NCBI GenBank assembly: GCA_039714595.1
Contig: JBDLJA010000005.1
Span: forward strand, 41,890-105,889
Origin: Thermodesulfobacteriota bacterium
GTDB lineage: Bacteria > Desulfobacterota > Desulfobulbia > Desulfobulbales > SURF-16
DNA: 64,000 nt
Direction of reading: 5' to 3'
Shown: positions 10,380 to 29,077 of the stretch, piece after piece
Numbering within the stretch: the stretch's first letter is position 1
Layout of the letters: every line of letters starts with the position of its first letter
Translations under genes and position numbers: made by a program
The notes under the pieces: model-generated
Databases searched by the model: none
The model's input: only the letters and a program-made list of their open reading frames with translations
Told to the model about the DNA's origin: nothing

Positions 10380-10486
10380 ATTTTTTTTACTGGCTGGTTG
10401 AAGCTAAAGTAAAACCACGCCCACCTAGGGGCAGCATATCTTCTATCTTTGCTGAAACAGTTAGGGCAAGGGGCAGCAAAAAAAAC

Positions 10487-11821: not shown

Positions 11822-12057
11822 AAACAGTTAGGGCTTCATATAAAACAGCGAAGCAACTTCTGGCAAGGGAAAAGGGTGTCGTCTCTGGCCTTAGGCCCAG
11901 CCAGAAGCCGCTAGAAGAAAAATATCAGCGCCAGTTGCTGGAGAATTGACCTTCCAGGTTGATAAGGCTATCGTACATAAAAATAGATCGAGCGGAAAGC
12001 CAATATGGGTACCGTTAAACTTTTTTACCTAAAAAAACCAAGCAGTTCTCCCCTGTC

Positions 12058-13704
12058 ATGAAAATCGCCCTCATCCAGCTGAACCCCACCATCGGCGCCT
12101 TTAAGGCCAATGGCGCCAAGATAGTAGAATGGAGCGCCCGGGCCGCTGAGGCGGGCGCCGAGCTTTGTGTCTTCCCGGAACTGGCCATCAGCGGCTACCC
12201 ACCCCAGGACTACCTGGAACATGGTGACTTCCTGGCCCAGCAGGACCAGGTCCTCGACGAGATAATGGGGGAGCTTGATGTAAGCGTCCTGCTTGGCGCC
12301 ATCACCGCCAACCCCAGCTCCCACGGCAAGCCGCTCCACAACAGCGGCCTTTTGATCGCCAAGGGCGAGGTGCGGTTCACCTCCCACAAGAAACTCTTGC
12401 CCACCTACGACGTCTTTGACGAATCGCGCTACTTCCAGCCGGGCCTAGGCGGCCAATTCACCTATTTCAAGGGGTTGGGCTTAGGGATAACGATCTGCGA
12501 AGACATCTTCAACGACCATGACGCCTTCCCGGAGCAGATCTACGATACCGACCCGGTGGCCGTGCTCCACGATGGCGGTGAAATCGATCTTTTGATCAAC
12601 ATCGCCGCCTCTCCCTTCACCATGGGCAAGATAGAACAGCGCCAGCGCGATTTCGCCATCATCTGCCGCAAATACGCCACCCCTTTACTCTACTGCAACC
12701 AGGTGGGGGGCCAGGACTCCATCATCTTTGACGGCTCATCGATGGTCTTAGACAGCTCCGGCCGCCTCTGCCACCAGGCCGCCTCATTCAGCGAAGAGAT
12801 GCTCCTGCTGGATCTCAAGCAGCTTACGCCCCAGCCAGAAGAGGCAGAGGGGGCGGAGCCGGAGGAAGAAGAGGAGGTGGTGGCGGCCCTGGTCCTGGGC
12901 TGCCGCGACTATGTCCACAAATGCGGCTTTAACCAGGCGGTGGTGGGGCTGTCCGGCGGTATCGACTCGGCCCTCACCTGCGCCCTGGCCGTCCGCGCCT
13001 TAGGCGCGGAAAATGTCCGGGGCATTGGCCTGCCCTCCCCTTACTCCTCAAAGGGCTCCATCGATGACGCCCGGGCCCTGGCCAAGAATTTGGGCATATC
13101 CTTTGAGCTGCTGCCCATCAGCCCCACCTTCAGCGCCGTCAAAGAGACCCTGGCCCCCCTGTTCGCAGGGTGCGGCGAAGACGTCACCGAACAGAACATC
13201 CAGGCCCGCATCCGAGGAGTGCTGCTCATGGCCCTGGCCAACAAGTTTAACGCCCTGCTTCTCACCACCGGCAACAAGTCGGAGCTGGCCGTGGGCTACT
13301 GCACCCTGTATGGCGACATGAACGGCGCCCTGGCGCTGATCTCCGATCTGCCCAAGACCCTTGTCTACCGCCTCTGCAACTATCTGAACCAAGAGAGCGA
13401 GATAATCCCGGCCAACACCATAACAAAGCCCCCCAGCGCCGAGTTGGCCGAAGACCAGCTGGACCAGGATGACCTGCCGCCCTATGAGATTTTGGATGAG
13501 ATACTGGCCGGCTACCTGGAGGAACACTTAAGCGTTGCCAAGCTGGTGGAGCGCGGCTTTGGGCCGGGACTGGTGAATGATATTATCCGGCGGGTGAAGA
13601 TCAACGAGTACAAGCGCCAGCAGGCCCCCCTGGGATTAAAGGTAACCGGCAAGGCGTTCGGCCTGGGCCGCCGCTTTCCCATAGCGGCCCGTTTTCAGGA
13701 GTAA
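12058..13704 (+). CDS. nadE: Glutamine-dependent NAD+ synthetase
   Basis: 548-aa ORF. N-terminal nitrilase/CN-hydrolase domain followed by an NAD synthetase domain with the PP-loop GLSGGIDS. Confidence 0.92.
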   Translation: MKIALIQLNPTIGAFKANGAKIVEWSARAAEAGAELCVFPELAISGYPPQDYLEHGDFLAQQDQVLDEIMGELDVSVLLGAITANPSSHGKPLHNSGLLIAKGEVRFTSHKKLLPTYDVFDESRYFQPGLGGQFTYFKGLGLGITICEDIFNDHDAFPEQIYDTDPVAVLHDGGEIDLLINIAASPFTMGKIEQRQRDFAIICRKYATPLLYCNQVGGQDSIIFDGSSMVLDSSGRLCHQAASFSEEMLLLDLKQLTPQPEEAEGAEPEEEEEVVAALVLGCRDYVHKCGFNQAVVGLSGGIDSALTCALAVRALGAENVRGIGLPSPYSSKGSIDDARALAKNLGISFELLPISPTFSAVKETLAPLFAGCGEDVTEQNIQARIRGVLLMALANKFNALLLTTGNKSELAVGYCTLYGDMNGALALISDLPKTLVYRLCNYLNQESEIIPANTITKPPSAELAEDQLDQDDLPPYEILDEILAGYLEEHLSVAKLVERGFGPGLVNDIIRRVKINEYKRQQAPLGLKVTGKAFGLGRRFPIAARFQE

Positions 13705-14144
13705 GACCCTTCTTGCCCCCCATAGACCGCGGCCAGTTCACTACAGATGGGCCGGGCCAGACAGGGAACCAGTACCGCCAGGAGGCGGGAGACGCTGCAC
13801 GGTTTTTCGATACAGGCCCGGAAACCGTTTTCCCGGCAGAACCGCTGGCGCTCCGCGCCGCACAGGTCGGCCCCGGTCACCGCGATAACGGGGATATGAC
13901 TGAAATCAGGATGGTGAAAGAGGAGGCGGCTGGCCTCATCGCCATCCATCTCCGCCATGTAGAGATCCATGAGCACCGCATGGGGCTGGAAGCGCCGGCA
14001 GGCGGACAAAACCGCGCTGCCGTCTGTCTCCTCGGCCACCTCAAAACCTAAGGCCTGCAGACTGGCCCCCAGGATGGAGCGGTTGACGCCATCGTCATCA
14101 ACAATAAGTATCCTCTGCCGCTCCACCTGTACCGCCCCTTTCAT
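13695..14144 (-). CDS. Single-domain response regulator (receiver)
   Basis: Receiver signatures ILIVDDD...DLYMAEMDG. I moved the start to the ATG at 14144, which is preceded by GGAGGAGAG. The 3' end overlaps the nadE 3' end by 10 nt (convergent). Confidence 0.75.
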   Translation of the reverse strand: MKGAVQVERQRILIVDDDGVNRSILGASLQALGFEVAEETDGSAVLSACRRFQPHAVLMDLYMAEMDGDEASRLLFHHPDFSHIPVIAVTGADLCGAERQRFCRENGFRACIEKPCSVSRLLAVLVPCLARPICSELAAVYGGQEGSYS

Positions 14145-14325
14145 CTCTCCTCCAAGGTTTTTTTTGAGGATGCCTCCTAACGGAGCAACCAAGAGCCCAC
14201 AACTAAAATATAACCCGCTGCCAGCGGCAAATAACAGCAGAAGTTTCAGAAGTTGCGAGGCAAGGGCGGCAACCTGTTGGAAATTTAACGAAAAAAGCTA
14301 GCCAGCACCTGCCGACAATCACCCT

Positions 14326-14934
14326 TTACAGTTTGCAGTAAGAAAATTGCGGCGGCCCTTTGATGATCATCTCGGCAATGGTCATCTTCACCTTGGGCAG
14401 CACCTGGCGCTTAACCCCCAGCCACTCCATCTCAATAGCGATGAACTCCCGAAAAAAGGGGGTGCGATCCATCCGGGCCAAGCCCTCTTCCTCCGGGGCG
14501 ATCTCCTGACAGCGAAAACAGCCGGGAAACTCCAAGCGCTTGCCATCGGGCCGGGTCATGGCCGCCGGCACCCCGTGGAGACGGCAGATGAGGAGCCGGT
14601 GCTCATAGGGCAGGCAGAGGCCATCTTCATTCAAGGGGCACATGATCTGGGGGCGCTCATCGGCGGCCAGGGCCTTTTGGCTCTCCTCCTTGTAACTCCT
14701 GGCCCGCTCTGCAATGGCCGCCCTCTTCTCCTCCGGCAGCCGGCTTAGCCCCTCCCACAGATAGGCCCACTCGGTATAGGTGTGATGGAGGAAATAGCTG
14801 TCGCAGCAGTTATCGGGGCAGCCCTCGCAGGTAAATTGCAAATCGCCGGCCACCCGGTCATACTCTTGCTGAATCCCCTCATATACCTTGGCCACCCGGG
14901 CCGAGATCTCTGGGGGCAATATTGTGGAACTCAT
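14326..14934 (-). CDS. YkgJ/UPF0153-type Cys-rich putative Fe-S/zinc protein
   Basis: CxxCxxCC motif (FTCEGCPDNCCDSYF). I prefer the internal ATG at 14934 (GGAG 6 nt upstream) to the TTG at 14946. Confidence 0.7.
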   Translation of the reverse strand: MSSTILPPEISARVAKVYEGIQQEYDRVAGDLQFTCEGCPDNCCDSYFLHHTYTEWAYLWEGLSRLPEEKRAAIAERARSYKEESQKALAADERPQIMCPLNEDGLCLPYEHRLLICRLHGVPAAMTRPDGKRLEFPGCFRCQEIAPEEEGLARMDRTPFFREFIAIEMEWLGVKRQVLPKVKMTIAEMIIKGPPQFSYCKL

Positions 14935-15039
14935 AAATAACTCCAAAAAAAAGTTAACAATAAATTGCTTACGGTTTAAGATTTTCTATTCATTAATTAA
15001 GCAAATTCAGGAAAAATTCTTTCCCATAAGCCATCCATA

Positions 15040-15067
15040 AACCGTCAACCGTCAACCGTAAACCGTA
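15040..15067. repeat. Tandem heptanucleotide array (AACCGTC)x2(AACCGTA)x2
   Basis: Read directly: aaccgtc aaccgtc aaccgta aaccgta, 35 nt upstream of the PMM/PGM start. An inverted single unit TTACGGTTT lies at 14969-14977. Confidence 0.85.
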
Positions 15068-15102
15068 ATTTTTAGTCCCCCATTGCCTAAGGAACCACAC
15101 CC

Positions 15103-16458
15103 ATGTCCCACCTCTCCTGCTTCAAGGCCTACGACATTCGGGGCCAGGTCCCCGATGAGTTAGACGAAAAACTGGCCTTTCGCATCGGCCAGGCCTATGC
15201 CGCCCACTTCAAGCCGCAGAAGATGGCCCTGGCCCATGACATCAGGCTTTCCGGCCCATCACTCACCACTGCCCTGTGCGAGGGTTTCCTCCAGGCCGGG
15301 GTTGACGTGGTCCACCTGGGTCAATGCGGGACAGAGGAGATCTACTTTGCCGCCTCGCACCTTAATGACGTTGACGGGGCCATCATTGTCACGGCCAGCC
15401 ATAACCCGGCCGCCTACAACGGCATGAAGATGGTGCTTAAAGGGGCCATCCCGGTCTCCGGCAGCAGCGGACTCAGGGAGATCGAGGCCCTGGCCGCCGC
15501 CGCTCACGAGGTGCACGGCCGCAACCGGGGCGAGGCAAATAAGCTTGACAACCGTCCCGCCTATATCGACCACCTGCTGAGCTATATCAAGGCGGAGACC
15601 CTCTCCCCTCTAAAGATCGTGGCCAATCCCGGCAACGGTGGGGCCGGCCCCATAATTGCCGCCCTGGCCCCCCACCTGCCCTTCCAGTTCATCGCCATCG
15701 ACGATGAACCGGACGGCCACTTCCCCAACGGGGTCCCCAACCCCCTGCTCCCTGAGAACCGGGCCGCCACCAGTGAGGCGGTGCGGCTTCACGGCGCCCA
15801 GCTTGGCCTGGCCTGGGACGGTGACTTTGACCGCTGCTTCTTCTTTGACGAGGCGGGCAACTTCATCGAGGGCTACTACATTGTGGGGCTGCTGGCCCAG
15901 GCCATGCTGAAAAAGGCGCCTGGGGCCAAGATCATCCACGACCCCCGCCTCACCTGGAACACCCAGGAGCTGGTTAGAGCGGCCGGTGGCCAGCCCATCA
16001 TGACCAAGACCGGTCATGCCTTTATTAAAGAGAGGATGCGCAGTGAAGACGCCGTCTATGGCGGCGAGATGAGCGCCCACCACTACTTCCGCGATTTTTC
16101 CTACTGCGATTCGGGCATGATTCCCTGGCTGCTGATAGCCGAGCTCCTCTGCCAGCAGCAGGTGAGCATCTCCAGCCTGGTGGCCCAGGCCAAAGAGAGC
16201 TTTCCCGTCTCCGGCGAGATCAACAATAAGGTGGCAGAGCCAGACGAAATAATCGCCGCGGTGGAGGAGAGGTACCTGAGTGAGTGCCAGTCCCGTGACG
16301 ATATCGACGGCCTCTCCATGAGCTTTGACAACTGGCGCTTTAACATCCGCAAATCAAACACCGAGCCGGTCCTCCGCCTCAACGTGGAGAGCCGGGGAGA
16401 TGTACCCCTGATGGAGGAGAAGACGGCCGAGCTGCTGGCCATGATCAAGGGGGGCTGA
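15103..16458 (+). CDS. Phosphomannomutase/phosphoglucomutase
   Basis: 451-aa ORF with the active-site phosphoserine loop TASHNPAAYNGMK and metal loop DGDFDR. Confidence 0.9.
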   Translation: MSHLSCFKAYDIRGQVPDELDEKLAFRIGQAYAAHFKPQKMALAHDIRLSGPSLTTALCEGFLQAGVDVVHLGQCGTEEIYFAASHLNDVDGAIIVTASHNPAAYNGMKMVLKGAIPVSGSSGLREIEALAAAAHEVHGRNRGEANKLDNRPAYIDHLLSYIKAETLSPLKIVANPGNGGAGPIIAALAPHLPFQFIAIDDEPDGHFPNGVPNPLLPENRAATSEAVRLHGAQLGLAWDGDFDRCFFFDEAGNFIEGYYIVGLLAQAMLKKAPGAKIIHDPRLTWNTQELVRAAGGQPIMTKTGHAFIKERMRSEDAVYGGEMSAHHYFRDFSYCDSGMIPWLLIAELLCQQQVSISSLVAQAKESFPVSGEINNKVAEPDEIIAAVEERYLSECQSRDDIDGLSMSFDNWRFNIRKSNTEPVLRLNVESRGDVPLMEEKTAELLAMIKGG

Positions 16459-16778
16459 AGTTTTTTAACTCAGCCTGGCCCAAAAAGGCTTGGCCTGAGG
16501 CCGCCTGACCGCAATAAAAATCCGGGCCCAGAGGGCCCGGCCTTGATAGCCCCTGGAGGGGGCTTGCCTTACCCCGTTGCCACCATCTTCTGCGGAGGAC
16601 AAAGGAAGTACGTAGGAGCAGATGGCTAGGGTGCCCTTTCTTTCGCCGCTTTGCTGCTGGTTCGTTTTCTTTGCACCCTGCGGGCATAAAGGCAAACAAA
16701 GAAAATGAACAATAGCGGCAGAGCCTCTCTCCTCTGACCTGGCCCTGAAGGCCAGATTTTAAACGCTAAAATAAAAAA

Positions 16779-16811
16779 CCCCGAAGTCACAGCCATGACT
16801 TCGGGGTTTTT
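16779..16811. terminator. Bidirectional rho-independent terminator
   Basis: ccccgaagtca-cagcca-tgacttcgggg flanked by an A-run (5') and a T-run (3'). Sits just downstream of the dnaA stop in a convergent gap. Confidence 0.65.
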
Positions 16812-16851
16812 TGTCTCCTTCCCGGGGAAGGGACAAATAACTTTCAGGATC

Positions 16852-18180
16852 TTACAAAAACTTCTTCTCCAGCTGGTCGGAGAGATGCTCCAGCTGACCC
16901 CGGACCGAGCCATCGCGATTGATCTTATTATTGATGGTCTTCACCGAGTGGACCACGGTGGAGTGGTCGCGGTTCAACGCCTTGCCGATCTCGCTCAACG
17001 GGTACTCCGTATGCTTGCGGGCCAGGTACATGGCCACCTGGCGGGGGAAGGCGATGGCCCGCTTACGCGACTTGGACTGGAGATCGTTGATGGTAACCCT
17101 GAACTTACCGGCGATGAAATCACGAATCATCTCCGGGGTGATCTGGCGGCCGGCGCCCACAATCCCCTGAAGGATCTGCTTGACCATATCCAGGTCAGGA
17201 TCGCAGCCAAGGAGAGCGGTCTGGGCCTTAAGGCCGACGATGATCGACTCACAGCGCCTGATGTCACCCTTGACGTTTTCGGCAATATAACCAACCAGAT
17301 CCTCAGAGAGCAGCAGGTCAGAATTACCCGCCTTGCGGCGAATGATCTTCTCGCGGGTGGCAAAACCGGGGGGGTTGATGGTGGTGACCAAGCCTAAGGA
17401 GAGGCGGGAACGCAGGCCAGGGTCCAGGTTTTCAATCTCGGCCGGCCCCTTGGATGAGGTCATTACCACCCGCTTGCCACTCTCCATGAGGAGATCCAGG
17501 GTCTCGGCAAACTCGGCCTGGGTCTTGGCCCGGCCGGCCAAGGCCTGCACATCTTCAATGAGCAGGACATCACAGTTGCGCTGATACTTGGAGCGAAACT
17601 TGCCCATGGTATTGGCCTTGATCCCCTTGACCATCTCCACCGTCAGCTGCTGGGCCGTGACATACTGCATCCGGGTCTGGGGCGAGGTGCCAACTATATG
17701 ATGGGCCACCGACTGGGCCAGATGGCTCTTACCCAGGCCGGTACCGCCATTGACATAGATACAGTTGCCCAGGGCCGGCCGGTCATCGGCCAGGGCCTGG
17801 CAGGCCGAGTGGGCCAGGGCGTTACACTCCCCCACCATGAACTCAGAAAAGGTATAGCGGGGATGGAGGGTCTTGGTGAATGGCGCCACCTTCTCCATGG
17901 CGGGCAGCCGCATCTGGCGGGTGCGGGGTGATCCGGAGAGCTGCTGCCCCACTGCCGCCTCCAGGCTGACCTTGACCTGGCCGTGGCCCAGTTCCTGAAG
18001 ACACTCCTGGATGGGGCCCATGACATTGTCCTGGAAACGATCACAGAAAAAGGTGTCAGGGCCGGTGAGAACCAGGCTGTCATCCACCTGTTCTTCCGCG
18101 GTCACCGGCGAAATCCAGAGAGAATAAACATTTTCGGGGATTTTTTGCTGAAGCTGTTTTTTTATTGATTGCCACAACAT
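16852..18180 (-). CDS. dnaA: Chromosomal replication initiator protein DnaA
   Basis: 442-aa ORF. AAA+ Walker A GGTGLGKSHL, LLIEDVQ, and a C-terminal DNA-binding region ...RQVAMYLARKHT...IGKALNRDHSTVVHS. Confidence 0.93.
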   Translation of the reverse strand: MLWQSIKKQLQQKIPENVYSLWISPVTAEEQVDDSLVLTGPDTFFCDRFQDNVMGPIQECLQELGHGQVKVSLEAAVGQQLSGSPRTRQMRLPAMEKVAPFTKTLHPRYTFSEFMVGECNALAHSACQALADDRPALGNCIYVNGGTGLGKSHLAQSVAHHIVGTSPQTRMQYVTAQQLTVEMVKGIKANTMGKFRSKYQRNCDVLLIEDVQALAGRAKTQAEFAETLDLLMESGKRVVMTSSKGPAEIENLDPGLRSRLSLGLVTTINPPGFATREKIIRRKAGNSDLLLSEDLVGYIAENVKGDIRRCESIIVGLKAQTALLGCDPDLDMVKQILQGIVGAGRQITPEMIRDFIAGKFRVTINDLQSKSRKRAIAFPRQVAMYLARKHTEYPLSEIGKALNRDHSTVVHSVKTINNKINRDGSVRGQLEHLSDQLEKKFL

Positions 18181-18838
18181 GTAGGTATCACTCTGCTCAT
18201 ACTTTGGTTAGGAAGGGGTGTGCCTTGGTGAAACTGATGGGGTGATATTTAGCTGAAAGGGGAAAAACAGTCAAAAGCGGTTTTGCAAGATTTCCCTAAA
18301 AAAAGAATAGAGTTATCAACACTCTGCCCCCCCCTTGCCCCCCGCTGTTTCCGACGCCATCCGCCCCTATTAGTGCAGAAAAACGTCGTTTTTAAAAATG
18401 GCCTTAAAAAGAGCGTTAATATAAGCCCTTACCCATAACCTAGCGATATTTATCGGCTTTTAACTAAACCCTAAAGGACCTTTTTTGCTCCCGTTTCCTG
18501 GCAAATACTCCCAAATCCTCACTTTTCCACCCAAAAGACGAAAAAAACAAACAGCTGTCAAGCTGACTATCTAGCCGAACCCCGGCCCAGCGGCCCTCAG
18601 CGGCCATTTACCTGCCCCGGAAAAAGTCCAAAAAAAATATTAATTATTTTGTTAGGATAACTATTCATTTGCTATACTTCTGCCTTTCTCAAACCAGGAG
18701 CAGAACTGGCTCATTGTGGCCAGCCTCCAGTTAAGAAAATTCAGCGCCGTTTCCCTGAGCTGCAGGCCTTCGCCATGGTTGCCAGGCCCCTGAACATCAA
18801 CCGGCCTATCAGGCCGACCAGGTCCTGGGCCAAGGGTC
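18181..18838. other. Candidate oriC / dnaA promoter region
   Basis: Largest non-coding gap in the window (658 bp), directly upstream of dnaA and relatively AT-rich. Only degenerate DnaA-box-like 9-mers: TTATCAACA at 18312-18320, TTTTCCACC at about 18524-18532, TTATCCTAA (reverse strand) at about 18652-18662. AT-rich tract at about 18630-18680. Confidence 0.3.
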
Positions 18839-20144: not shown

Positions 20145-21206
20145 ATGACCGACCCCGCCCAGATAAGAGCCGCGGCCAGCAACTTCACCCCCCAGCCGGT
20201 GACAGAAATAATCCCCCTGGCCGGCGGCATAATCAACCGCACCTGGCGCCTCTGCCTAAAAAACGGTGAGGAGCTGATCCTCCAGAGGCTCAATTGCCAG
20301 GTCTTCAAATGGCCGGAGCAGAGCTGCCGCAACATGGCCCTGGTGGGTAAGCTTGCCAAAAAGCTCCATAAGTTAAGTGATCGGCGCTGGGAGATCCCCA
20401 GCCTGCGCCTCACCCCCGCCGGGGAGCCGTGGTGGTTCGCCCCGGACGGCGGCCTGTGGCGGGCCATGGATTTCATCACGGGCACCATCAATATCCAGCA
20501 GGTCGACAGCCCGGCCATGGCAGCTGACATCGGCCGGGGCCTGGCCCTCTTCCACCAACTGGTGGCGGACATCTCCCCGCACCAGCTGCCGGCAACCATT
20601 GACCACTTCCACGACACCCCCCATTATATAGAAGAGTTGGAGAGGGGTGTTGCTAGTAGGAAAGAACTCTCGCCCCAACAGAGCAGACTGGTGGACTTCA
20701 GCCGGGAGCGGAGCCGGCGGGGCGCTGAACTGGCCAGCGCCCTGAAGCAGGGGCTCCTTACCACCGCCATCATCCATGGCGACCCGAAGGTGGAAAACTT
20801 CCTCTTTGACGCGGCCAGCAAGAGGGTGTGCAGCCTCATCGACCTGGACACGGTGGGCCCCGGCCTCCGCCTCCACGATCTGGGCGACTGCGTCCGCTCC
20901 TGCGCGGCCCGGCCCGCTGGCCCGGGCGCCCTTGACTTTGACCTGGAGATCTGCAAAGAAATTGTCGCCGGCTACCAGGGCCAGGGGCCGGAACTTCTCA
21001 CCGGCAACGATAAAAAATTTCTCCCCCGGGCCATCTGGCTCCTGCCCTTTGAGCTGGGGGTCCGTTTTTTAAGCGACCAGCTGAGCGGGGCCGGCTATTT
21101 CCGCGAATCATTCCCCGGCCAGAACCTGCAGCAGGCCGAAGAACAGTTCAGCCTGGCCCGGGCGGTGGAGGCCAAGGGTGGTGAACTTGCCAGCTTGGCC
21201 AACTGA
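20145..21206 (+). CDS. Aminoglycoside-phosphotransferase (APH) family kinase, anomeric sugar kinase-like (NahK/AmgK-like)
   Basis: 353-aa ORF. Catalytic loop IIHGDPKVENFLF and metal-binding LIDLDTVGPG. Confidence 0.8.
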   Translation: MTDPAQIRAAASNFTPQPVTEIIPLAGGIINRTWRLCLKNGEELILQRLNCQVFKWPEQSCRNMALVGKLAKKLHKLSDRRWEIPSLRLTPAGEPWWFAPDGGLWRAMDFITGTINIQQVDSPAMAADIGRGLALFHQLVADISPHQLPATIDHFHDTPHYIEELERGVASRKELSPQQSRLVDFSRERSRRGAELASALKQGLLTTAIIHGDPKVENFLFDAASKRVCSLIDLDTVGPGLRLHDLGDCVRSCAARPAGPGALDFDLEICKEIVAGYQGQGPELLTGNDKKFLPRAIWLLPFELGVRFLSDQLSGAGYFRESFPGQNLQQAEEQFSLARAVEAKGGELASLAN

Positions 21207-21281
21207 TATTTACAGCCACCACCCTATCTGCCTATAGTAGTTTCAGAGATCTAAAGTTCGCTTTACCCGACACGCATCACT

Positions 21282-21296
21282 TGATAATAATTATCA
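21282..21296. promoter_or_regulatory. Fur-type 7-1-7 operator (perfect)
   Basis: TGATAATAATTATCA is a perfect palindrome and a 15/15 match to the Fur 7-1-7 consensus TGATAATnATTATCA. It lies in the AT-rich gap upstream of the 756-aa ORF. Confidence 0.6.
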
Positions 21297-21310
21297 TTAA
21301 TGTTTTAATT

Positions 21311-21325
21311 AGATAATTATTATCC
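21311..21325. promoter_or_regulatory. Second Fur-type box overlapping the -35/spacer
   Basis: aGATAATTATTATCc has a perfect 6-1-6 core (13/15 to consensus). It is 29 bp centre-to-centre from box 1 and 8 nt upstream of TATAAT. Confidence 0.5.
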
Positions 21326-21333
21326 TAACCTCC

Positions 21334-21339
21334 TATAAT
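21334..21339 (+). promoter_or_regulatory. Candidate -10 hexamer (TATAAT)
   Basis: Consensus TATAAT 42 nt upstream of the GTG at 21381. No good -35; that position is occupied by Fur-like box 2. Confidence 0.4.
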
Positions 21340-21380
21340 CATTTGCCAAGACAGCATCTGCCCCCAAATCCAGGAAAATA

Positions 21381-23651
21381 GTGATGAGCGAAAGCGGCCC
21401 TGCCCCTGACAAAACTCAAAAGATCCTCTTTCTCGGCTCCAACGCCAAGATTCACAACCTGCCCATCAAGGAGGTGAGCCTGCTGGAAGAGGGGAGCCTG
21501 CCCTCCTATGGCTATAATCCCGGCGATTTTGTCGAGCTGCTGGCCGGCTCGGTGAGTGTTGAGCGCGGCCGCCTGGACCAGTGCGTCACCTGGCTCTCAA
21601 CCTACCTCACCTCAGAAGAGCTCAGCCCCGAGATCACCACCATCACCTATGGCAAGAAGAAGGATATCTTCCAGATCTTCCGTAAACATAGCCAGAGTGA
21701 CATGTCCCAGAAACATGGCTGGTTCATGGTCCATCAGATCCTGCCCTTCTGCGATCGCGGCGAGGACTATGAAAACTTCACCATCAACCGCCACAATCGT
21801 GACCAACTCAAGGACCAGGACGGGGTAATCATAATTGACGACGGCGGCCACCCCCCCCAGGTGGCGGCGGAGTTGAAGAAGTTGAGCCCCGACGCCTGGG
21901 TCATCGGCATGGGGATATCGGTGGCCCACTGGCATACCTGGGCCAAGTCATATGGCGACAACTTCATCCTCCTGGGCCGTTTGGCCGACCTGGAGACCAC
22001 CCGGATGGAGATGGACAGCTCGGCGGTGTGGGAATCCATCGTGGCCATGTGCCTGCGGGCCCTGCGCTCTTCAGAGGTGGGCATCTGGGACGCCAGCCAT
22101 AACCGCTTCCGCTGCCACGTCATGATCGAGATGTTTCCCCACGGCATCCTGATGATCTCGCCGGAGCGCATCTACTTCCGCCATCGCCCCGGCTCCCTGC
22201 CGGAGAAGAGTTCGTCGCGCCAGAAGGGTTCCATGCCCGCCTACGACACCCTGGTGGCCGCCATGCTCACCACGGAAAACATCCGGGCCCGGGGGCTGAT
22301 GAGTGGCCGGGACCACATTCACCTCTTCACCAAGATGGTCCTGGCCCACTGGCAGTGGCTCCACGAGAAGGGCTACTGCTTCGACGGCTCCCTGCGCTTT
22401 CCCGTTCTAAACTCCACCCCCCCTTACCTGGAGAGTGAGTCGTACGATAACGACCTGCCGCCCGACCCGTTTTTCATCGAGCTGCCCCCCTTCTCCGACC
22501 CCTTTGACAAGACCCTGGAGCAGGTGGCCAGCCAGAGCTGGAACGAGGCGAGCAAGGCGGGCCTGCGCTCGTTTTTTGACCAGTCCCACCTGAAATCGCG
22601 GCCCAAATCGCAGCTTGCCCCCCTGGGCTACATGGATATCATTTTAGAGGTGATCCACCAGCTGAAAGAGGAGGTGAGCCGCAAGCAGGGCTTCAAGAAC
22701 CTGCGCATCTTCAACGTGGGCCACCTGCGCACCACCGACCCGGCCGAGATCGGCCCGGTCCTCACCCTCCAGTCGGTGATGGACTCCTACGTCTCCAAGG
22801 AGAGCTTCCAGCGCCCCTTATGCATCGGCGTCTTCGGCCCCCCCGGCTCCGGCAAGTCGTTTGCCGTCAAGGAGGTGGCCCGGGTGATCGGCAAAAAATT
22901 CAACGAGAACCCCTTTGACTTCTATGAGTTCAACCTCACCCAGTTTGACTCGCCGGACGAGATAAACTCATCCATCGACCTGGTCCGGGCCTCGGTGGCC
23001 CAGGGCAAGGTGCCCATCACCTTCTGGGATGAGTTTGACTGCCGCTACCAGGACCATGAGTTTGGCTACCTGCGCTACTTCCTGCCCTCCATGCAGGACG
23101 GCGTCACCTACAACCATGGCACCCCCTACTATATCGGCCGCTCCATCTTTGTCTTTGCCGGCGGGGTCAAGTCCAACTGGGGGGGGATGGAGGCGTTGCT
23201 TGACCCGGACGACCAGGGCAGCCTCCAGAAGGCCAAGACCCTGAAGATCCCTGATTTTATGAGCCGGCTGCGGGTGGTCTTAGATATCGACGGCATCGCC
23301 ATCCCGGAGGAGCTTTTGCGCGACTCGGCCAGCGGCCAGGAGCTTGAGGAGCTGCGCCGCATCTTGCTGAAACGGGCCTTTATCATCGCCCATCAGATGG
23401 ACACCCACTGGAAGAAGGCGGCCCGCAAGACCTCGGGCCTGCTCCTGCGCCTGCTTCTGGCCAACTATAAGTTCGGGGCCCGCTCCATCGAGGCGGTGAT
23501 CGAGGCGAGCCGGGCCGCCGACCGCCTGGTCTACGGCCTGCCGGAGCTCATCGGCCCCTCCGGGGCCCGGATCCACGCCGACTGGCGGGTGGACCTGGAG
23601 CGCCGCATCGATCAGGTCCGCAAAGAGCAGGGCTTGCGCTCGGTCTGGTAG
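21381..23651 (+). CDS. Orphan 756-aa protein: degenerate pfkB/ribokinase-like N-terminal half + classic AAA+ ATPase C-terminal half
   Basis: C-terminal half has Walker A GVFGPPGSGKSF, Walker B ITFWDEFD, FLPSMQDG, FVFAGG and a GARSIEAVIEAS sensor-2-like segment. By eye the N-terminal half follows the pfkB order (KILFLGSN..., DGVIIIDDGG..., SMPAYDTLVAAM in place of GAGD). The start could be the ATG at 21384. Confidence 0.85.
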   Translation: MMSESGPAPDKTQKILFLGSNAKIHNLPIKEVSLLEEGSLPSYGYNPGDFVELLAGSVSVERGRLDQCVTWLSTYLTSEELSPEITTITYGKKKDIFQIFRKHSQSDMSQKHGWFMVHQILPFCDRGEDYENFTINRHNRDQLKDQDGVIIIDDGGHPPQVAAELKKLSPDAWVIGMGISVAHWHTWAKSYGDNFILLGRLADLETTRMEMDSSAVWESIVAMCLRALRSSEVGIWDASHNRFRCHVMIEMFPHGILMISPERIYFRHRPGSLPEKSSSRQKGSMPAYDTLVAAMLTTENIRARGLMSGRDHIHLFTKMVLAHWQWLHEKGYCFDGSLRFPVLNSTPPYLESESYDNDLPPDPFFIELPPFSDPFDKTLEQVASQSWNEASKAGLRSFFDQSHLKSRPKSQLAPLGYMDIILEVIHQLKEEVSRKQGFKNLRIFNVGHLRTTDPAEIGPVLTLQSVMDSYVSKESFQRPLCIGVFGPPGSGKSFAVKEVARVIGKKFNENPFDFYEFNLTQFDSPDEINSSIDLVRASVAQGKVPITFWDEFDCRYQDHEFGYLRYFLPSMQDGVTYNHGTPYYIGRSIFVFAGGVKSNWGGMEALLDPDDQGSLQKAKTLKIPDFMSRLRVVLDIDGIAIPEELLRDSASGQELEELRRILLKRAFIIAHQMDTHWKKAARKTSGLLLRLLLANYKFGARSIEAVIEASRAADRLVYGLPELIGPSGARIHADWRVDLERRIDQVRKEQGLRSVW

Positions 23652-23722
23652 AGCGGGAAAACAGGTACCGAGCCTCGCGGCTGGCAGGCGGATCTGGCCA
23701 AGGCAATGGCCATAAAAAACTG

Positions 23723-23751
23723 TTGAATCCCCCGGGGGGATGGGTTATAAA
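23723..23751 (+). promoter_or_regulatory. Candidate sigma70 promoter of tRNA-Arg
   Basis: TTGAAT (23723-23728), a 17-nt spacer, then TATAAA (23746-23751), ending 16 nt upstream of the tRNA 5' end. Confidence 0.45.
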
Positions 23752-23767: not shown

Positions 23768-23844
23768 GCACCAGTAGCTCAGCTGGATAGAGTACATGAC
23801 TACGAATCATGGGGTCGCAGGTTCGAATCCTGCCTGGTGTACCA
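23768..23844 (+). tRNA. tRNA-Arg (anticodon ACG)
   Basis: Folded by eye into a cloverleaf. Acceptor GCACCAG/CTGGTGT, D-arm AGCTCAGCTGGATAGAGT, anticodon stem CATGA/TCATG with loop CTACGAA, T-arm GCAGGTTCGAATCCTGC, encoded CCA. Confidence 0.93.
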
Positions 23845-23852
23845 GTAATCTC

Positions 23853-23889
23853 AGGCATCTAGCTCATTTTTGAGCCAGATGCCTTTTTT
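23853..23889 (+). terminator. Rho-independent terminator after tRNA-Arg
   Basis: aggcatctagctca-tttt-tgagccagatgcct (one mismatch) followed by TTTTT. Confidence 0.7.
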
Positions 23890-24157
23890 CATTTTCTCCG
23901 GGACAGTAAGGTCCGCCAAGGCTGAAAAATGATCCGGCTCGATTTCAATCAAGACCCGGAATATACAGTGGTTACGCAGGCATTTGCTTATTATCTCCAA
24001 CGCTTAGGGATGAACCCAAGCCAGGACAGACTCGCGTAACGACAATCTATCTTGTCTGGCCAGTCCAGACTTTCCACGCCGAAGCAGCAGACGATGCCTC
24101 GGCCCTAAAACAAAGTGGTTTGCAGCACCAGGAACCACGCATATGGAGCATTACGAC

Positions 24158-24361
24158 ATGGCAGAAGGAACAGTTAAGTGGTTTAACGATGCAAAGGGTT
24201 TTGGTTTTATTGAGCAAAGTGACGGCGGCAAGGATGTGTTTGTCCATCACTCCGCGATTCAGTCCGAGGGCTTCAAGTCCCTGACCGAAGGCGCTAAGGT
24301 GACCTACGACGTTGTTGACGGGCCCAAGGGACCGTCGGCCGAGAATGTTGTTCAGCAGTAG
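24158..24361 (+). CDS. cspA: Cold-shock protein (CspA family)
   Basis: [20 protein letters not shown]...VFVHHSAI carries the RNP1/RNP2 motifs. GGAG lies 9 nt upstream of the ATG at 24158. Confidence 0.92.
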
Positions 24362-24904: not shown

Positions 24905-25597
24905 ATGATCAAAAACAATTTAAAAAAAATTGTCCTTTTCAGCGCCGGGGCCAGCCTGGTGTTCCTTTTTTTCGCCTTTGACCTGGGCCAATACCTGACC
25001 CTGAGCTACCTCAAGGAGTCACAGGCCCGCCTAAGCGATCTCTATGGTGCCAGACCAGGCCTGGTCATTGGCGCCTACATGCTGATCTACATCCTGGTCA
25101 CCGGACTTTCCCTGCCCGGGGCGGTGATCCTCACCCTGGCCGGCGGGGCCCTCTTTGGCCTGGCCACCGGCCTTATAATCGTCTCCTTTGCCTCCACCAT
25201 CGGCGCCACCTGCGCCTGCTTTGCGGCCCGCTTCCTCCTGCGCGACTGGGTACAGAGCAAGTTTGGCGACAGGCTTGGGACCATCAACGAAGGCATGGCC
25301 AGGGAGGGGGCCTTTTACCTCTTCACCCTGCGCCTCATCCCCATCTTCCCCTTCTTTGTCATCAACCTGGTCATGGGGCTGACGAAGATGAGAATAGTCA
25401 CCTTCTACTGGGTCTCCCAGCTGGGCATGCTGGCCGGCACCGGTGTCTATGTCAATGCCGGCAAGGAGCTGGGCAAGATAGAGAGCCTCTCCGGCATCCT
25501 CTCGCCGGGGCTCATCACCTCCTTTGTCATCCTGGGGCTCTTCCCCCTGCTGGCCAAAAAGTCCATTGCCTTGGCCAGACAGCAGAGAGGGGCATGA
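24905..25597 (+). CDS. TVP38/TMEM64 (DedA-related) family membrane protein
   Basis: 230-aa multi-pass membrane ORF with a family-typical core: LPGAVILTLAGGALFG...STIGATCACFAARFLLRDWV. Confidence 0.85.
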   Translation: MIKNNLKKIVLFSAGASLVFLFFAFDLGQYLTLSYLKESQARLSDLYGARPGLVIGAYMLIYILVTGLSLPGAVILTLAGGALFGLATGLIIVSFASTIGATCACFAARFLLRDWVQSKFGDRLGTINEGMAREGAFYLFTLRLIPIFPFFVINLVMGLTKMRIVTFYWVSQLGMLAGTGVYVNAGKELGKIESLSGILSPGLITSFVILGLFPLLAKKSIALARQQRGA

Positions 25598-25828: not shown

Positions 25829-28800
25829 TTAGACCATGGGGATCGCCTCGCATCCTGGGCCGACAAGGGAGCTTCTGCCGCCGGAAATTGGCACAATATT
25901 GATCTGGGTGGCTATCCGCTCTTTCAGGGCCGAGACATGGGAGATAACGCCGATCAGTTTGCCATCCTGCTGTAAACCTCCCAAGGTCTCCAGGGCTGTC
26001 TCCAGGGCATCCGCATCCAGGGTGCCAAACCCTTCATCAAGGAAGAGGGAATCGACCCGCACCTTGTGGCTCGCCATTTTTGAGAGGCCAAGGGCCAGGG
26101 AGAGGCTGACGATAAAACTCTCACCACCGGAAAGGTTCTTGGTGGAGCGAATTTCCCCGGCCTGATAATTATCAACAACATTAAGTTCAAGGGGTAGTAC
26201 CTCATCACGGATCAACAGGTAGCGATCCGTCATTTCGGCCAGCTGCCTGTTGGCATGGGAGATCATCAGTTCAAAGGTCAAGCCCTGGGCAAAATTGCGA
26301 TACCTCTTGCCATCGGCTGAACCAATTAAGCCATGCAGTTTCTCCCAGCGGCCCCACTCTTTCTTCTGAGATTCCACCACCAGCCACTTCTCCTTGAGCC
26401 GCTCCTGGGCAACGGCGTGCTCAGCGAGCTTGTGCTGCAGCCCGGCAATGGCAGCCCTGAGGGTCTTAAGCTCCTCGCCAAGGTCCCTAAGTTGCGGCTC
26501 CAGCTCCCCGAGCCCTTTGAGGGTCACCTTCTTAGCCAGCTCAGCGGCTAAACGATTCTCGCGGTCACTCTGTCTGGCCGCAAGGGCCGTCTGGCCATCA
26601 TCGAGCTCCCTGGCCTTGGCCGCCAGGCTATCCCGCGCCGCCACGGGCAGGCGAGTTGCGCGGAACTGTTTTTCATCAACAAAGCCAGCCGGCGGCAGAG
26701 AGGCAGAAAAATCCGCCTCCATCTTCTTCAGCTCAGCCCCCCTTTGCTCAAGCCGTTCCTGGAGGGAGGCGACATTGGTCATGCTGGAGTTCCATCTCTG
26801 CCGCGCCTCTTCGTGCTGGCCCCTGGCCTCTTTTTCCGCCAGCTCGGCCGCGCTAATGGCCCTGTCCAGGCGCAGCTCTTCATCAGCAGTTTTTTTATCG
26901 CCAAACAAGACCTGGCGCTGGTCAATGCCAAGGGCATATTCCTTTCTGACGGCAGACAGGGCCTCCTCTTTTCCGGCCAGATCCCTGCTTCGTGTCTCAA
27001 TAAGGGCAGCAAGCCGCTGCAACTCACCGTCCAGTCCAATCAGTTGTTTTTCTACTGCCGCTTTTTTCTTAACCTGGGCCTGCCACCTGGCAAGGCGCGC
27101 CTCTAACGATTCCAGCAGGGCAGAGGGGTCCGACTCCCATTCTCCAATGCCAAGGGGGGCCAGTTTGGCCAACACGGCGTTCTGCAACTCGGCAAAACCG
27201 GCCCTGGCCGCGGCCAAACTGCTAACAAGAGTGGCAACTCTTTCTTCAGCGACCTTATTTTCAGCCAGAGCGGCCGCTTCCAGCTTTTCGCTGGCCACCA
27301 GATTCTCCCGGGCTTGGCCCGCGGCTGTTTCCAGATCCTTGATTGCCGCCTCCTGATCTTCCGCCTTTCCTATCAGGCAGGAGAGCTCCCCAAGCTTTTT
27401 CTCTATCTTATCCGGCCCGGGATGGCCCTGAACAAAGGGGTGTTCCTCGGAGCCGCAGAGGGGGCAAGGTTTTCCCTCTTCCAGCCGGGCCCGCTGCTCT
27501 TCGAGGCTGGCAATCTTATCGAGAAACATCTTTTCCCGCAGCAGGGTCTCTTTCTCTCGGCGATATTCACGCAGCAGCCGGCCAGCCAACAAGCGGTTTA
27601 AACCCTCTTTCCCCTCGGCCAGGGTGTTAAGGGCGGCCGCCAACTCCTCTCCCCTCACCCCGCACCGCTTCCGGCAGGCCGCCAGTTTTTCGCCAGACCC
27701 CTTAAGGGCGGCTTTTGCCTTCTCCTCTTCATCCCCCTTCTGGACGATCTCCCTCTCTTTGGCGCTCAGATTGGCCAGCTGCTCGCGGGCTCCGGCAAGG
27801 CCACTTACCAGCCATTCATCCCGCGAATTCTCTTCCAGATATCTCTCCACCAGCAGCAAATCGTTGCGGGCCCCGGCCCGTTTTTTCTCCTCTTCCCCCT
27901 GGCGCAATCTGTCGGCAGCAATTTCTGCCCCATATTTCCTGCAGCTCCCCTCGCCCTCAACCACCGCCTTTTTCTGTTCAGTGAGTTTCTGGTCCAGGAG
28001 GCGAACCTTCTGGATAATTGGCGCGGTCTGCTGCCGCTCTTCTTTGGCCGCCCGGCTCTGCTCCTCGCCAGCATGGCGGGCTTTTTCTAGTTCTTGGCAG
28101 GAACCTGCCAGGACGGGCAGTTTATCCTCTTCACTTTTCAGGGCAGAGTGATCGGCGGCCTGCCCTTTGCGCACCTCTGTCAACCGCCCATGGACCCCGT
28201 CCAGCTCGGCCGCTTTCAGGGCCCGGCTCAGCCGTTGACGATCCGCTTTAAAGGCGGCAATCTCGCCCTGGAGCTTCTCAGACTCGCCAGCCAGGGAGCT
28301 GATCTCTTTTTTCAAGCCAGCAATCCCGCTGAGCCAGGCGATACCCTTTGCCATTTCATCTGTCTGGCCGACCAGCCCCTTCTCCTGCCTTTGCCTCTCG
28401 ACCAGTTCCTGAACCGTTTCCCTTTCCCTGTCCGGATCAAGAACCTCAATACCTGCCATTTCGGCCTCAAGAGCCTTAAGCTTTTCCCCCTCCAGGCGCT
28501 GGCGCTCATGCACCCGCCGGGAAATCTCCGAATAAATTTCCGTGCCGGTGATCTGCTCCAGGATAGGGGCCCGCTCATCGGTATTGGCCTTGAGAAAGGT
28601 ATCAAAACCGCCCTGGGCCAGGAGGATTGACCTGGTGAAGCGCTCAAAGTCCATCCCGGTCACGGCCGCAACCCGTTTGGCCACTTCCAGGAGTTTAACC
28701 TCTAAGACCTGGCCGGAATCTGCCGCCACTATCTCATGTTTGGGAGGTTGCAGATCACCGTCCGCCTTCTTCCTGGCCCGATGCTGGCTCCAGTGGCAGC

Positions 28801-29077
28801 GGAAATTCCCGGCCTGGGAGGCAAAGGTCACCTCGGCATAACATTCGCCGGTTTGCCGGGACATGATCTCATTGCCACTCTTATTAACCCTATTCAGTCG
28901 GGGCGTACGGCCATAGAGGGCAAGGCAGATGGCATCGAGGATCGTTGACTTTCCGGCCCCCGTGGGGCCGGTGATGGCGAAGATGCCATTGGCGGCGAAC
29001 TCCGGTGCGCTGAAATCAAGGCGCCAATGACCATAGAGGGAGTTAAGGTTTTTGAATCTGAGCTCAAGAATCTTCAT
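25829..29077 (-). CDS. sbcC: Exonuclease SbcC (SMC-like ATPase)
   Basis: 1082-aa ORF. N-terminal Walker A ITGPTGAGKSTILDAI, long coiled coil with a CPLCG zinc hook, C-terminal LSGGE signature and Walker B LFLDEGFG. Confidence 0.9.
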   Translation of the reverse strand: MKILELRFKNLNSLYGHWRLDFSAPEFAANGIFAITGPTGAGKSTILDAICLALYGRTPRLNRVNKSGNEIMSRQTGECYAEVTFASQAGNFRCHWSQHRARKKADGDLQPPKHEIVAADSGQVLEVKLLEVAKRVAAVTGMDFERFTRSILLAQGGFDTFLKANTDERAPILEQITGTEIYSEISRRVHERQRLEGEKLKALEAEMAGIEVLDPDRERETVQELVERQRQEKGLVGQTDEMAKGIAWLSGIAGLKKEISSLAGESEKLQGEIAAFKADRQRLSRALKAAELDGVHGRLTEVRKGQAADHSALKSEEDKLPVLAGSCQELEKARHAGEEQSRAAKEERQQTAPIIQKVRLLDQKLTEQKKAVVEGEGSCRKYGAEIAADRLRQGEEEKKRAGARNDLLLVERYLEENSRDEWLVSGLAGAREQLANLSAKEREIVQKGDEEEKAKAALKGSGEKLAACRKRCGVRGEELAAALNTLAEGKEGLNRLLAGRLLREYRREKETLLREKMFLDKIASLEEQRARLEEGKPCPLCGSEEHPFVQGHPGPDKIEKKLGELSCLIGKAEDQEAAIKDLETAAGQARENLVASEKLEAAALAENKVAEERVATLVSSLAAARAGFAELQNAVLAKLAPLGIGEWESDPSALLESLEARLARWQAQVKKKAAVEKQLIGLDGELQRLAALIETRSRDLAGKEEALSAVRKEYALGIDQRQVLFGDKKTADEELRLDRAISAAELAEKEARGQHEEARQRWNSSMTNVASLQERLEQRGAELKKMEADFSASLPPAGFVDEKQFRATRLPVAARDSLAAKARELDDGQTALAARQSDRENRLAAELAKKVTLKGLGELEPQLRDLGEELKTLRAAIAGLQHKLAEHAVAQERLKEKWLVVESQKKEWGRWEKLHGLIGSADGKRYRNFAQGLTFELMISHANRQLAEMTDRYLLIRDEVLPLELNVVDNYQAGEIRSTKNLSGGESFIVSLSLALGLSKMASHKVRVDSLFLDEGFGTLDADALETALETLGGLQQDGKLIGVISHVSALKERIATQINIVPISGGRSSLVGPGCEAIPMV

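Follow-up and report, generated by a model that had tools for sequence, protein, structure and literature searches.

The window analyzed here, the whole stretch of 64,000 nucleotides from contig JBDLJA010000005.1 of a Thermodesulfobacteriota bacterium, contains a plus-strand open reading frame (ORF) for a predicted ATPase, which lies between two upstream Fur boxes and a downstream tRNA-Arg gene (Table 1). The ORF is a real gene, since it is conserved at full length in at least 235 species genomes. Its product is a stand-alone member of a large uncharacterized superfamily in which a helical linker connects a predicted ribokinase-fold N-domain to an AAA+ module. We favor the interpretation that it operates as a ligand-gated AAA+ switch, retained as a stand-alone housekeeping gene and placed under Fur control in some lineages, although at about 45% this reading stands slightly below even odds. 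An earlier reading made from the DNA letters alone (hereafter the sequence-only reading) had placed the ORF, both Fur boxes, the tRNA, and the strong terminator correctly. The motifs it quoted also lie where it had put them, namely KILFLGSN (residues 14–21), DGVIIIDDGG (147–156), PAYDTLVAAML (286–296), FLPSMQDG (567–574), and the Walker A, Walker B, sensor-1, and sensor-2 motifs. The 5′ end of the ORF reads GTG-ATG, with the GTG at 21381 and the ATG directly following at 21384. An AGGA at 21372–21375 lies 8 nt before the ATG, a spacing that suits the ATG better than the GTG. Accordingly spaced, the ATG is the more likely start, which would give a protein of 755 residues, with the GTG as the alternative.

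Table 1. Features of the ATPase locus and gene contexts of distant relatives. Positions are those of the window unless a locus (L number) is named.
Feature	Residues	Position	Strand	Basis or remark
ORF, 756 aa		21381–23651	+	homologues full-length in at least 235 species genomes
N-terminal domain, predicted ribokinase/pfkB-like fold	12–340	21414–22400	+	AlphaFold2 and Foldseek
Inter-domain region	341–470	22401–22790	+	AlphaFold2 model and orthologue identity profile
Walker A, GPPGSGKS	486–493	22836–22859	+	invariant in orthologues
NLTQF loop at the pore-loop-1 position	518–522	22932–22946	+	Q521 and F522 invariant
Walker B, FWDEFD	548–553	23022–23039	+	D550, E551, and D553 invariant across both subfamilies
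Predicted pre-sensor-1 β-hairpin, VTYNHGTPYY	575–584	23103–23132	+	model, pLDDT about 95
Sensor-1 strand, FVFAGG	590–595	23148–23165	+	
IPDFMSRLR, candidate arginine finger R629	623–631	23247–23273	+	finger inferred from motif position
Sensor-2 motif GARSIEAVIEAS, helical lid	699–710	23475–23510	+	GAR; R701
Fur box 1, perfect 7-1-7 palindrome TGATAATAATTATCA		21282–21296	+	0 mismatches
Fur box 2, AGATAATTATTATCC		21311–21325	+	2 mismatches; overlap with the best promoter-like site at its −35 element and spacer
Best promoter-like site, sigma-70-like, TAGATA-18-TATAAT		21310–21339	+	10 of 12 consensus positions
APH-family phosphotransferase, 5′ neighbor		20145–21206	+	PF01636, E 3e-20
tRNA-Arg(ACG)		23768–23844	+	only a syntenic neighbor of the ATPase gene
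Intrinsic terminator hairpin followed by U6		23853–23884	+	free energy (dG) −21 kcal/mol, z −6.9
CspA-type cold-shock protein, downstream		24143–24361		
DedA/VTT-domain membrane protein, downstream		24905–25597		
SbcC-like ATPase, 1082 aa, downstream		25829–29077	−	
Relative: NUDIX and RelA_SpoT-RyR		L006/L007 (L006: 7001–12684)		
Relative: SLATT_1 upstream, TIR-fn3 protein downstream		L008: 1472–7523		
Relative: RyR-only protein, TIR-zinc-ribbon, caspase, unknown gene		L095: 1977–8688		
Relative: TrkA_N-RyR		L097: 4193–8697		4-bp overlap
RyR-less relative, then 194-aa gene and TrkA_N-RyR		L094: 384–4947		

A search over 5.8 billion proteins returned at least 300 matches, the best 120 of which are full-length (744–779 aa, with one of 722 aa) and 61–78% identical to the window protein. 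Where a source name is given, they originate from metagenome-assembled genomes (MAGs) of Desulfobulbaceae or Thermodesulfobacteriota and bear the names "ATPase", "ATP-binding protein", "AAA family ATPase", or "hypothetical protein". A scan in which each GTDB species was represented by a single genome detected a relative in at least 235 species-level genomes of the sulfur-cycling Desulfobulbia, so that the former label "orphan" no longer applies. The locus counts below refer to the best 80 of these 235 genomes, all of which are labeled as Desulfobulbia or with broader or older names of the same lineage. The taxa include Desulfobulbaceae, Desulfocapsaceae, Desulfurivibrionaceae, Desulfobulbus, Desulfocapsa sulfexigens, and the cable bacterium Candidatus Electronema. 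The identity bands of the orthologues track taxonomy, and the 80 retrieved loci belong to different assemblies, in which a second copy was not seen. In a 30-sequence alignment, the mean pairwise identity is 63% for residues 12–340 and 79–80% for residues 471–756. The whole protein is thus under strong purifying selection and is vertically inherited across the class Desulfobulbia.

The C-terminal module is, by its predicted structure, a genuine AAA+ ATPase with an α-β-α core and a helical lid. The AlphaFold2 model of residues 345–756, computed from an 82-sequence alignment that included distant relatives, has a predicted local distance difference test score (pLDDT) of 88.4 and a predicted template modeling score of 0.87. 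Judged by its motifs, the module carries the full set for nucleotide hydrolysis, and the key residues recur in a distant subfamily of ryanodine receptor (RyR)-type relatives, described below. In these relatives, Walker A is invariant except for P487 and S490, which leaves a GxxGxGKS core common to both groups. The candidate finger R629 is invariant across both subfamilies, whereas R631 is confined to the orthologue clade and is mostly Gly in the RyR-type relatives. G699, R701, and S702 vary little or not at all in either, and their putative sensor-2 role follows from their position.

Foldseek comparison of the AAA+ model with the PDB yielded 299 matches at E ≤ 1e-3. The top ranks are held by Skd3/CLPB, ClpX, ClpB-NBD2, ClpC, Lon, and HslU (E 8e-7 to 3e-5), with ORC/Cdc6, CbbX, and dynein interleaved among them. 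In the model (mc179580071e0, strands 231–234 and 237–240), the two hairpin strands at residues 575–578 and 581–584 lie between helix 568–573 and the sensor-1 strand 589–593. Furthermore, a helical insert of about 27 residues is predicted between residues 595 and 623, ahead of the IPDFMSRLR helix, while helix 2 bears no insertion. These structural hallmarks point to the pre-sensor-1-hairpin/HCLR group. Sequence comparisons lean in a different direction. The Pfam AAA family PF00004 matches marginally (22.4 bits against a threshold of 21.2) and over residues 484–554 only. A profile of the AAA+ module retrieved Rpt3, Mpa, Cdc48, and Vps4 from the PDB sequences at E 0.01–0.1, through the Walker A–B half only, and no Clp or Lon protein appeared in its top 60. 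With unverified FtsH and ClpX query sequences, hhalign gave probabilities of 92% and 53%, respectively, again over the Walker A–B half only. A weak match to bpMoxR (PF20030) stayed below the threshold (19.5 against 27 bits). The module is therefore a bona fide AAA+ domain as the sequence-only reading had held, but its assignment to the classic clade is not clean, given the predicted hairpin, the GAR sensor-2, and the ClpX/ClpB-D2/Skd3 structural neighbors. The aromatic-hydrophobic-Gly pore loop 1 is absent. The sequence there is NLTQFDSP, and in the 7-residue loop at this position only Q521–F522 are invariant. In the hhalign alignment with FtsH, the MFVG pore loop falls opposite a short "pdd" stretch that follows NLSQF in the family and lacks an aromatic-hydrophobic-Gly motif.

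Residues 12–340 are predicted to adopt a ribokinase/pfkB fold. With the orthologue alignment, AlphaFold2 gave 10-residue block means of pLDDT 80–93 over most of residues 14–340. Every one of the top 50 Foldseek matches in the PDB is a pfkB kinase (E 9e-8 to 2e-4, probability 1.00), with template modeling scores of about 0.4–0.54 per target over about 350 columns. The matches include an Agrobacterium carbohydrate kinase, the Listeria Lin2199 phosphofructokinase, LacC, PfkB/Pfk-2, ribokinases, HldA, ketohexokinase, and pseudouridine kinase. The structure prediction that the sequence-only reading had suggested as a check thus returned the fold that it had proposed by eye. No sequence-profile signal accompanies this result. 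The N-domain has no match in Pfam (no PF00294 even at E ≤ 10), NCBIfam, PADLOC, or the PDB sequences. A profile of 22 N-domains, distant relatives included, retrieved no pfkB protein from the PDB sequences, and PF00294 matched none of the 22. In hhalign, the N-domain profile reached a probability of 0.3% with Escherichia coli RbsK, the sequence of which was verified as 100% identical to PDB 1GQT. Since these tests are all negative, the link to the pfkB fold is without sequence backing.

The state of the putative active site bears on whether this domain is a receptor or an enzyme. The canonical GAGD anion hole (C-terminal DTxGAGD) is absent, the sequence there being GSMPAYDTLVAAML, in which Pro-Ala-Tyr replaces the GAGD glycines. 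The GGA motif of the RyR-type relatives falls opposite a gap in the window clade, which has DLETT at the NxxE position. The motifs that are invariant within the clade are DLETTRMEMD (203–212), W217–E218, D289–T290, G331, and P341. The sequence-only reading had matched D289–T290 to the DT ahead of GAGD. D289–T290 lies at the N-terminus of the predicted helix 288–303, and a by-eye alignment of PAYD289T with AAGD255T of RbsK, at least as good as that of the sequence-only reading, would put D289 at the catalytic Asp position. Therefore, the loss of the GAGD element stands, whereas a loss of catalysis, which had been deduced from it, is not established. This arrangement leaves an alternative to the ligand-gated switch, in which the N-domain, though highly divergent, is active as a kinase of sugars or nucleosides and the protein is a bifunctional enzyme-ATPase rather than a sensor. 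The predicted fold and the placement of D289–T290 argue for such a kinase, and the invariant DD153–154 together with the acidic DLETTRMEMD could bind Mg2+. Set against it are the Pro-Ala-Tyr substitution, the lack of a clear NxxE or GG motif in the clade, the missing pfkB profile signal, and the finding that the RyR-type relatives have G, N, T, or A in place of D289. An active kinase is accordingly unlikely, although it survives better than the other alternatives considered below.

The region joining the two halves was described by the sequence-only reading as a Pro/Ser/Asp-rich linker of about 110 residues, which is an overstatement. Pro, Ser, and Asp together make up 27.7% of residues 341–470, compared with 20.5% of the whole protein. 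The region consists of a Pro-rich part (341–372), a conserved helical pair (373–399), a loop (400–416), and a helix with the N-linker (417–470) that leads to the AAA+ core. Only the loop is hypervariable, with a mean pairwise identity of 12%. Residues 373–399 and 417–470 are conserved and form high-confidence predicted helices that pack onto the ATPase.

Upstream of the gene, a spacer of 174 nt holds the two Fur boxes, both of which overlap sigma-70-like hexamer pairs. Besides the overlap of box 2 with the best promoter-like site, box 1 overlaps a further promoter-like site at 21262–21291. The window contains three Fur-like sites with at most two mismatches, compared with 0.05 expected from shuffled sequences. 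The third (TGATAATTATCAACA, two mismatches, 26163–26177) is situated within the SbcC-like ORF and is probably a chance match. Among 78 orthologous loci, 6 have an upstream box with at most one mismatch. These 6 belong to the window's own subclade of 72–75% identity, and direct inspection of five other distinct loci revealed no Fur box upstream. Metal control, as previously proposed, is consistent with the promoter overlap here, but, as read from these sites, it is a lineage feature confined to one subclade.

On the 3′ side, the tRNA-Arg has a promoter recognizable by eye (TTGAAT-17-TATAAA, 23723–23751), and the hairpin past the tRNA is the first terminator 3′ of the ATPase gene. The spacer between the ORF and the tRNA (23652–23725) has no significant structure (z −0.14), so the gene possesses its own promoter region and lacks a terminator of its own. 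The same tRNA lies within 400 nt 3′ of the orthologue in 17 of 74 loci, all in a subclade of 70–78% identity; since the synteny is restricted to one subclade, the tRNA was rejected as a functional partner. In a related genome (L002), the same tRNA is directly followed by an island (10355–18268) that carries an integrase of phage type along with a type I restriction-modification system. This tRNA site (23768–23890 in the window) has the appearance of a hot spot for integration, unoccupied here. A mobile-element or island origin of the ATPase gene itself was rejected, since its GC content of about 0.60 resembles that of the flanking DNA and the L002 island sits past the tRNA.

The neighborhoods of the orthologues vary between subclades and consist of ordinary metabolic and respiratory genes. 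Clustering of the flanks in the 80 loci, with clusters lacking domain annotation, uncovered no partner family shared across the clade, in agreement with the sequence-only reading. The mean identity of about 80% in the AAA+ half among orthologues sampled across the class, together with this lack of a conserved partner, points to an important cellular function. Only three neighbors recur: the tRNA-Arg, an APH-family kinase, and cydA/cydB. The APH-family phosphotransferase of the window has no specific NCBIfam assignment, and a homologue lies 5′ of the ATPase in just 6 of 80 loci, the window's type among them, so it was not accepted as a conserved partner. Nor is it related to the NUDIX-APH gene close to a Streptomyces relative (L005). 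In L001 and L002, a CbbQ/AAA_5 ATPase and a 778-aa unannotated partner (L001 1498–4656) are found about 3.3–6.5 kb 5′ of the orthologue; this is a distinct pair of MoxR type, which the window does not show.

The third neighbor, cydA/cydB, is positioned directly 5′ on the same strand in 34 of 80 loci (L009 2196–5605 and 33 others among L041–L093); the 34 belong to a group with 63–66% identity and come from MAGs labeled as several genera. The arrangement occurs in two types, which leave about 270 nt or about 400 nt between cydAB and the orthologue. Further upstream of cydAB, an Rrf2 gene and a DUF4492 gene occur in L009–L011, and a cluster of Rrf2-like ORFs was detected in 8 of 80 loci. Based on the cyd linkage, the protein could instead be a maturation chaperone for metal cofactors or respiratory enzymes, with a role like that of MoxR, CbbQ, or NorQ, connected to iron homeostasis and cytochrome bd oxidase. 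The recurrence of cydAB in two arrangements and several genera, the Fur boxes of the window and its close relatives, and the weak bpMoxR matches are consistent with such a role. However, the window's own subclade lacks the cyd linkage, and where it occurs, it is separated from the gene by these gaps and may simply reflect shared ancestry. Moreover, the PF20030 match is below threshold, there is no vWA partner, and the structural neighbors are of Clp/Lon type rather than MoxR. This chaperone function is therefore less probable still than an active kinase.

The mechanism of the ligand-gated switch draws partly on the wider family. A HMMER search of 1.84 billion 50%-identity representatives, in which the full-length orthologues collapse to one cluster, detected the AAA+ module, at profile positions of about 435–730, in 2,640 clusters, 1,410 of them at E ≤ 1e-30. 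Most family proteins have Walker A at residues 430–530, as does the window protein. A profile of 30 relatives retrieved about 100 proteins, mostly of 800–980 aa and typically of about 880, nearly all with a C-terminal RyR domain (PF02026). Where a name is given, those from Streptomyces avermitilis, S. africanus, Planctomycetota, and Limnocylindrales are named "RyR domain-containing protein", and those from Chloroflexia "ATPase". Their RyR region holds two copies in tandem, with similarity to the repeat domains of animal ryanodine receptors (E about 1e-30). RyR-less members of about 700–750 aa also occur, and the AAA+ module is joined to varied N-terminal regions, including Ham1/ITPase in a few relatives. 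The window protein ends after the AAA+ lid and has no tandem RyR domain.

The AAA+ module of the RyR-type proteins is about 30% identical to that of the window protein, with E values down to 1e-54. Their N-terminal regions are collinear with the window N-domain and give weak hidden Markov model matches at equivalent coordinates. Orthologues and relatives alike have invariant G19, W217–E218, G331, and P341. The RyR-type consensus comprises IxVxGDxTxDW, GGAxLLA, DDAGxGFR, DLRxxxxxISRxLSWERT, GxMxGY, and GY...FP, and looks more pfkB-like than the window protein does.

In five of six distinct contexts, conflict-type or nucleotide-signaling genes lie on the same strand as the relative (Table 1). 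These operon-like clusters of the RyR-type relatives look like undescribed RyR-rich nucleotide-signaling or conflict systems, and PADLOC has no model that fits any of them. According to a 2026 preprint (PMC13232231), phage RyR/R12-domain proteins bind or hydrolyze 2′/3′ cyclic ADP-ribose (2′/3′cADPR) made by Thoeris TIR proteins. Read by eye, H75, W78, H100, and D117 of RyDEP recur with identical spacing in the consensus of the bacterial relatives, as H, W(+3), H(+25), and D(+42). Pairs of TIR and SLATT genes are reported as type VII Thoeris (bioRxiv 10.64898/2025.12.03.692087). The ATPase family is unmentioned in that preprint, in the Kaur et al. 2020 survey, and in PADLOC. PADLOC-DB v2 contained no matching defense model, giving P-loop-level similarity only, with E 0.017 in the case of the window protein and at best E 4e-4 among 10 relatives. 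This nucleotide-signaling context of the distant relatives makes the ligand sensing proposed by the sequence-only reading more plausible.

The same context raises a further alternative to the ligand-gated switch, namely a single-gene anti-phage or conflict protein whose N-domain or ATPase senses infection or a nucleotide alarm and then triggers growth arrest. The TIR, SLATT, caspase, NUDIX, and RelA/SpoT genes beside the relatives speak for it, as does the exchange of N-terminal regions on the AAA+ module, a modularity typical of conflict systems. In Desulfobulbia, however, none of TIR, SLATT, caspase, NUDIX, RelA-SpoT, or TrkA_N-RyR is annotated beside the orthologue in five distinct loci read with Pfam. 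The neighbors in the window (APH kinase, tRNA-Arg, CspA, DedA, and SbcC) are none of the partner types of the RyR-type relatives, and the 64-kb window holds neither a paralogue nor a RyR match. The lack of a PADLOC model match, the class-wide distribution with no second copy seen and with identity that follows taxonomy, and the conservation of the AAA+ half, unlike that of fast-evolving defense genes, weigh in the same direction, and the restriction-modification island of L002 does not adjoin the gene. A defense function is thus rated slightly below the chaperone in likelihood. Least likely of all is a conventional ClpX/ClpB-type threading unfoldase or disaggregase with a novel substrate-recognition domain, which is suggested by the top structural neighbors, the pre-sensor-1 hairpin, and the GAR sensor-2, and opposed by the missing aromatic-hydrophobic-Gly loop, the failure of sequence profiles to recover Clp proteins, and the lack of an identified protease partner or IGF-like docking loop.

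Considering these points together, the ligand-gated AAA+ switch remains the preferred reading, and the following sequence of events may be envisaged. The degenerate kinase cleft would bind a ribose-containing small molecule, such as a nucleoside, nucleotide, sugar phosphate, or ADP-ribose derivative, and would not phosphorylate it. Occupancy of the cleft could then be relayed through the conserved helical linker to the assembly of the AAA+ ring or to its ATP turnover, by which the ring would remodel or switch a protein target. In the absence of a canonical pore loop, a switch or remodeler is more likely than a threading unfoldase. The Desulfobulbia module would have lost the RyR domain and the immune partners and taken on an endogenous, housekeeping-type role. 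In the window genome and five to six close relatives, transcription would start from the promoter overlapped by the Fur boxes, so derepression is expected under iron limitation.

Several observations weigh against this reading. The mechanism is drawn from the architecture and from relatives with an identity of about 30% in the AAA+ module and 11–18% in the N-domain. The pfkB assignment comes solely from predicted structure, with the Pfam, PDB-profile, and RbsK comparisons negative, and the invariant D289–T290 may occupy the catalytic Asp position, so that true enzyme activity is conceivable. The window clade has replaced most of the superfamily's N-domain motifs (GDxTxDW, GGA, SWERT, and GxMxGY), and its ligand or role may therefore differ greatly. 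Finally, most orthologous loci have no Fur boxes.

A broader formulation is possible but doubtful. The ribokinase-fold and AAA+ pair, with or without RyR, would be the core NTPase of undescribed systems that respond to nucleotide signals derived from NAD/ADP-ribose or from alarmones and that pair with TIR, SLATT, caspase, NUDIX, RelA/SpoT-RyR, and TrkA_N-RyR genes, with the degenerate kinase domain as a receptor for ribose nucleotides. The RyR-less copy would have been domesticated as an essential, constrained switch in Desulfobulbia, including the cable bacteria, and brought under Fur in some lineages. AAA+ ATPases with N-terminal sensor domains are of a known kind. By comparison, the libraries and papers searched seem to contain no description of a ribokinase-fold domain serving as an AAA+ sensor, or of a family that joins a pfkB-like domain to AAA+, be it with RyR or without. 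In accordance with the sequence-only reading, no characterized system with a pfkB-AAA or pfkB-AAA-RyR architecture was found in Pfam, NCBIfam, PADLOC, or the PDB sequences, and a literature search, whose coverage did not extend to Burroughs et al. 2015 (NAR), yielded no description of such a protein. If the preferred reading is true, the fold of a metabolic kinase has become the receptor through which an AAA+ motor is gated. Since the family is large and, outside Desulfobulbia, tied to RyR, TIR, SLATT, caspase, and NUDIX genes, and since RyR (R12) domains are reported to recognize cADPR immune signals (PMC13232231), nucleotide-based immunity in bacteria could have in it a class of sensors or transducers that was missing so far. 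The wider family with its RyR/TIR context is thus of greater interest than the stand-alone copy in the window, while the Desulfobulbia orthologue offers a tractable entry point for biochemistry.

The known systems nearest to the window protein belong to several families. The RyR-type proteins resemble it through the homologous AAA+ module, the collinear N-domain, and the shared invariant residues; they differ in their tandem RyR/R12 domains and adjacent signaling genes, and the window protein differs in turn by its own invariant N-domain motifs, which replace most of those of the family. The ribokinase/pfkB kinases (RbsK, PfkB, LacC, and HldA) share the predicted fold and topology of residues ~12–340. 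By eye, the β1 "hhhhGS/GD" strand, the DD-containing central strand, the helix starting at 288–290, and the C-terminal G...P (G331...P341) are collinear with theirs. Unlike these kinases, the window protein has no GAGD, no clear GG or NxxE in its clade, and no sequence-profile similarity to them, and it is fused to an AAA+ ATPase.

Among AAA+ proteins, the HCLR motors (ClpX, HslU, ClpB/ClpC NBD2, Skd3/CLPB, and Lon) are the best structural neighbors of the modeled ATPase. The predicted features in common are the pre-sensor-1 β-hairpin, the absence of a helix-2 insert, the long helical insert between sensor 1 and the Arg finger, and the GAR sensor-2. FVFAGG, IPDFMSRLR, and GARSIEAVIE resemble FICGGAF, IPEFIGRLP, and GARGLRSIVE of ClpX. 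In contrast to the HCLR motors, the window ATPase has no GYVG-type pore loop or protease partner and does not retrieve them in profile searches. The classic-clade AAA proteins (FtsH, Rpt, Cdc48/p97, and Vps4) give the best sequence score for the Walker A–B half and the preceding N-linker. The window ATPase differs from them by the predicted hairpin, by the insert of about 27 residues in place of their compact second region of homology, by the presence of a sensor-2 Arg, and by the lack of the pore loop. Some relatives show weak, sub-threshold matches to nSTAND_NTPase5 and bpMoxR. Although the window protein has no sigma-54 interaction motif, DNA-binding domain, or STAND arm, the bacterial enhancer-binding proteins and the STAND/nSTAND NTPases are built on the same logic, in which an N-terminal signal domain is set over an oligomerizing P-loop NTPase.

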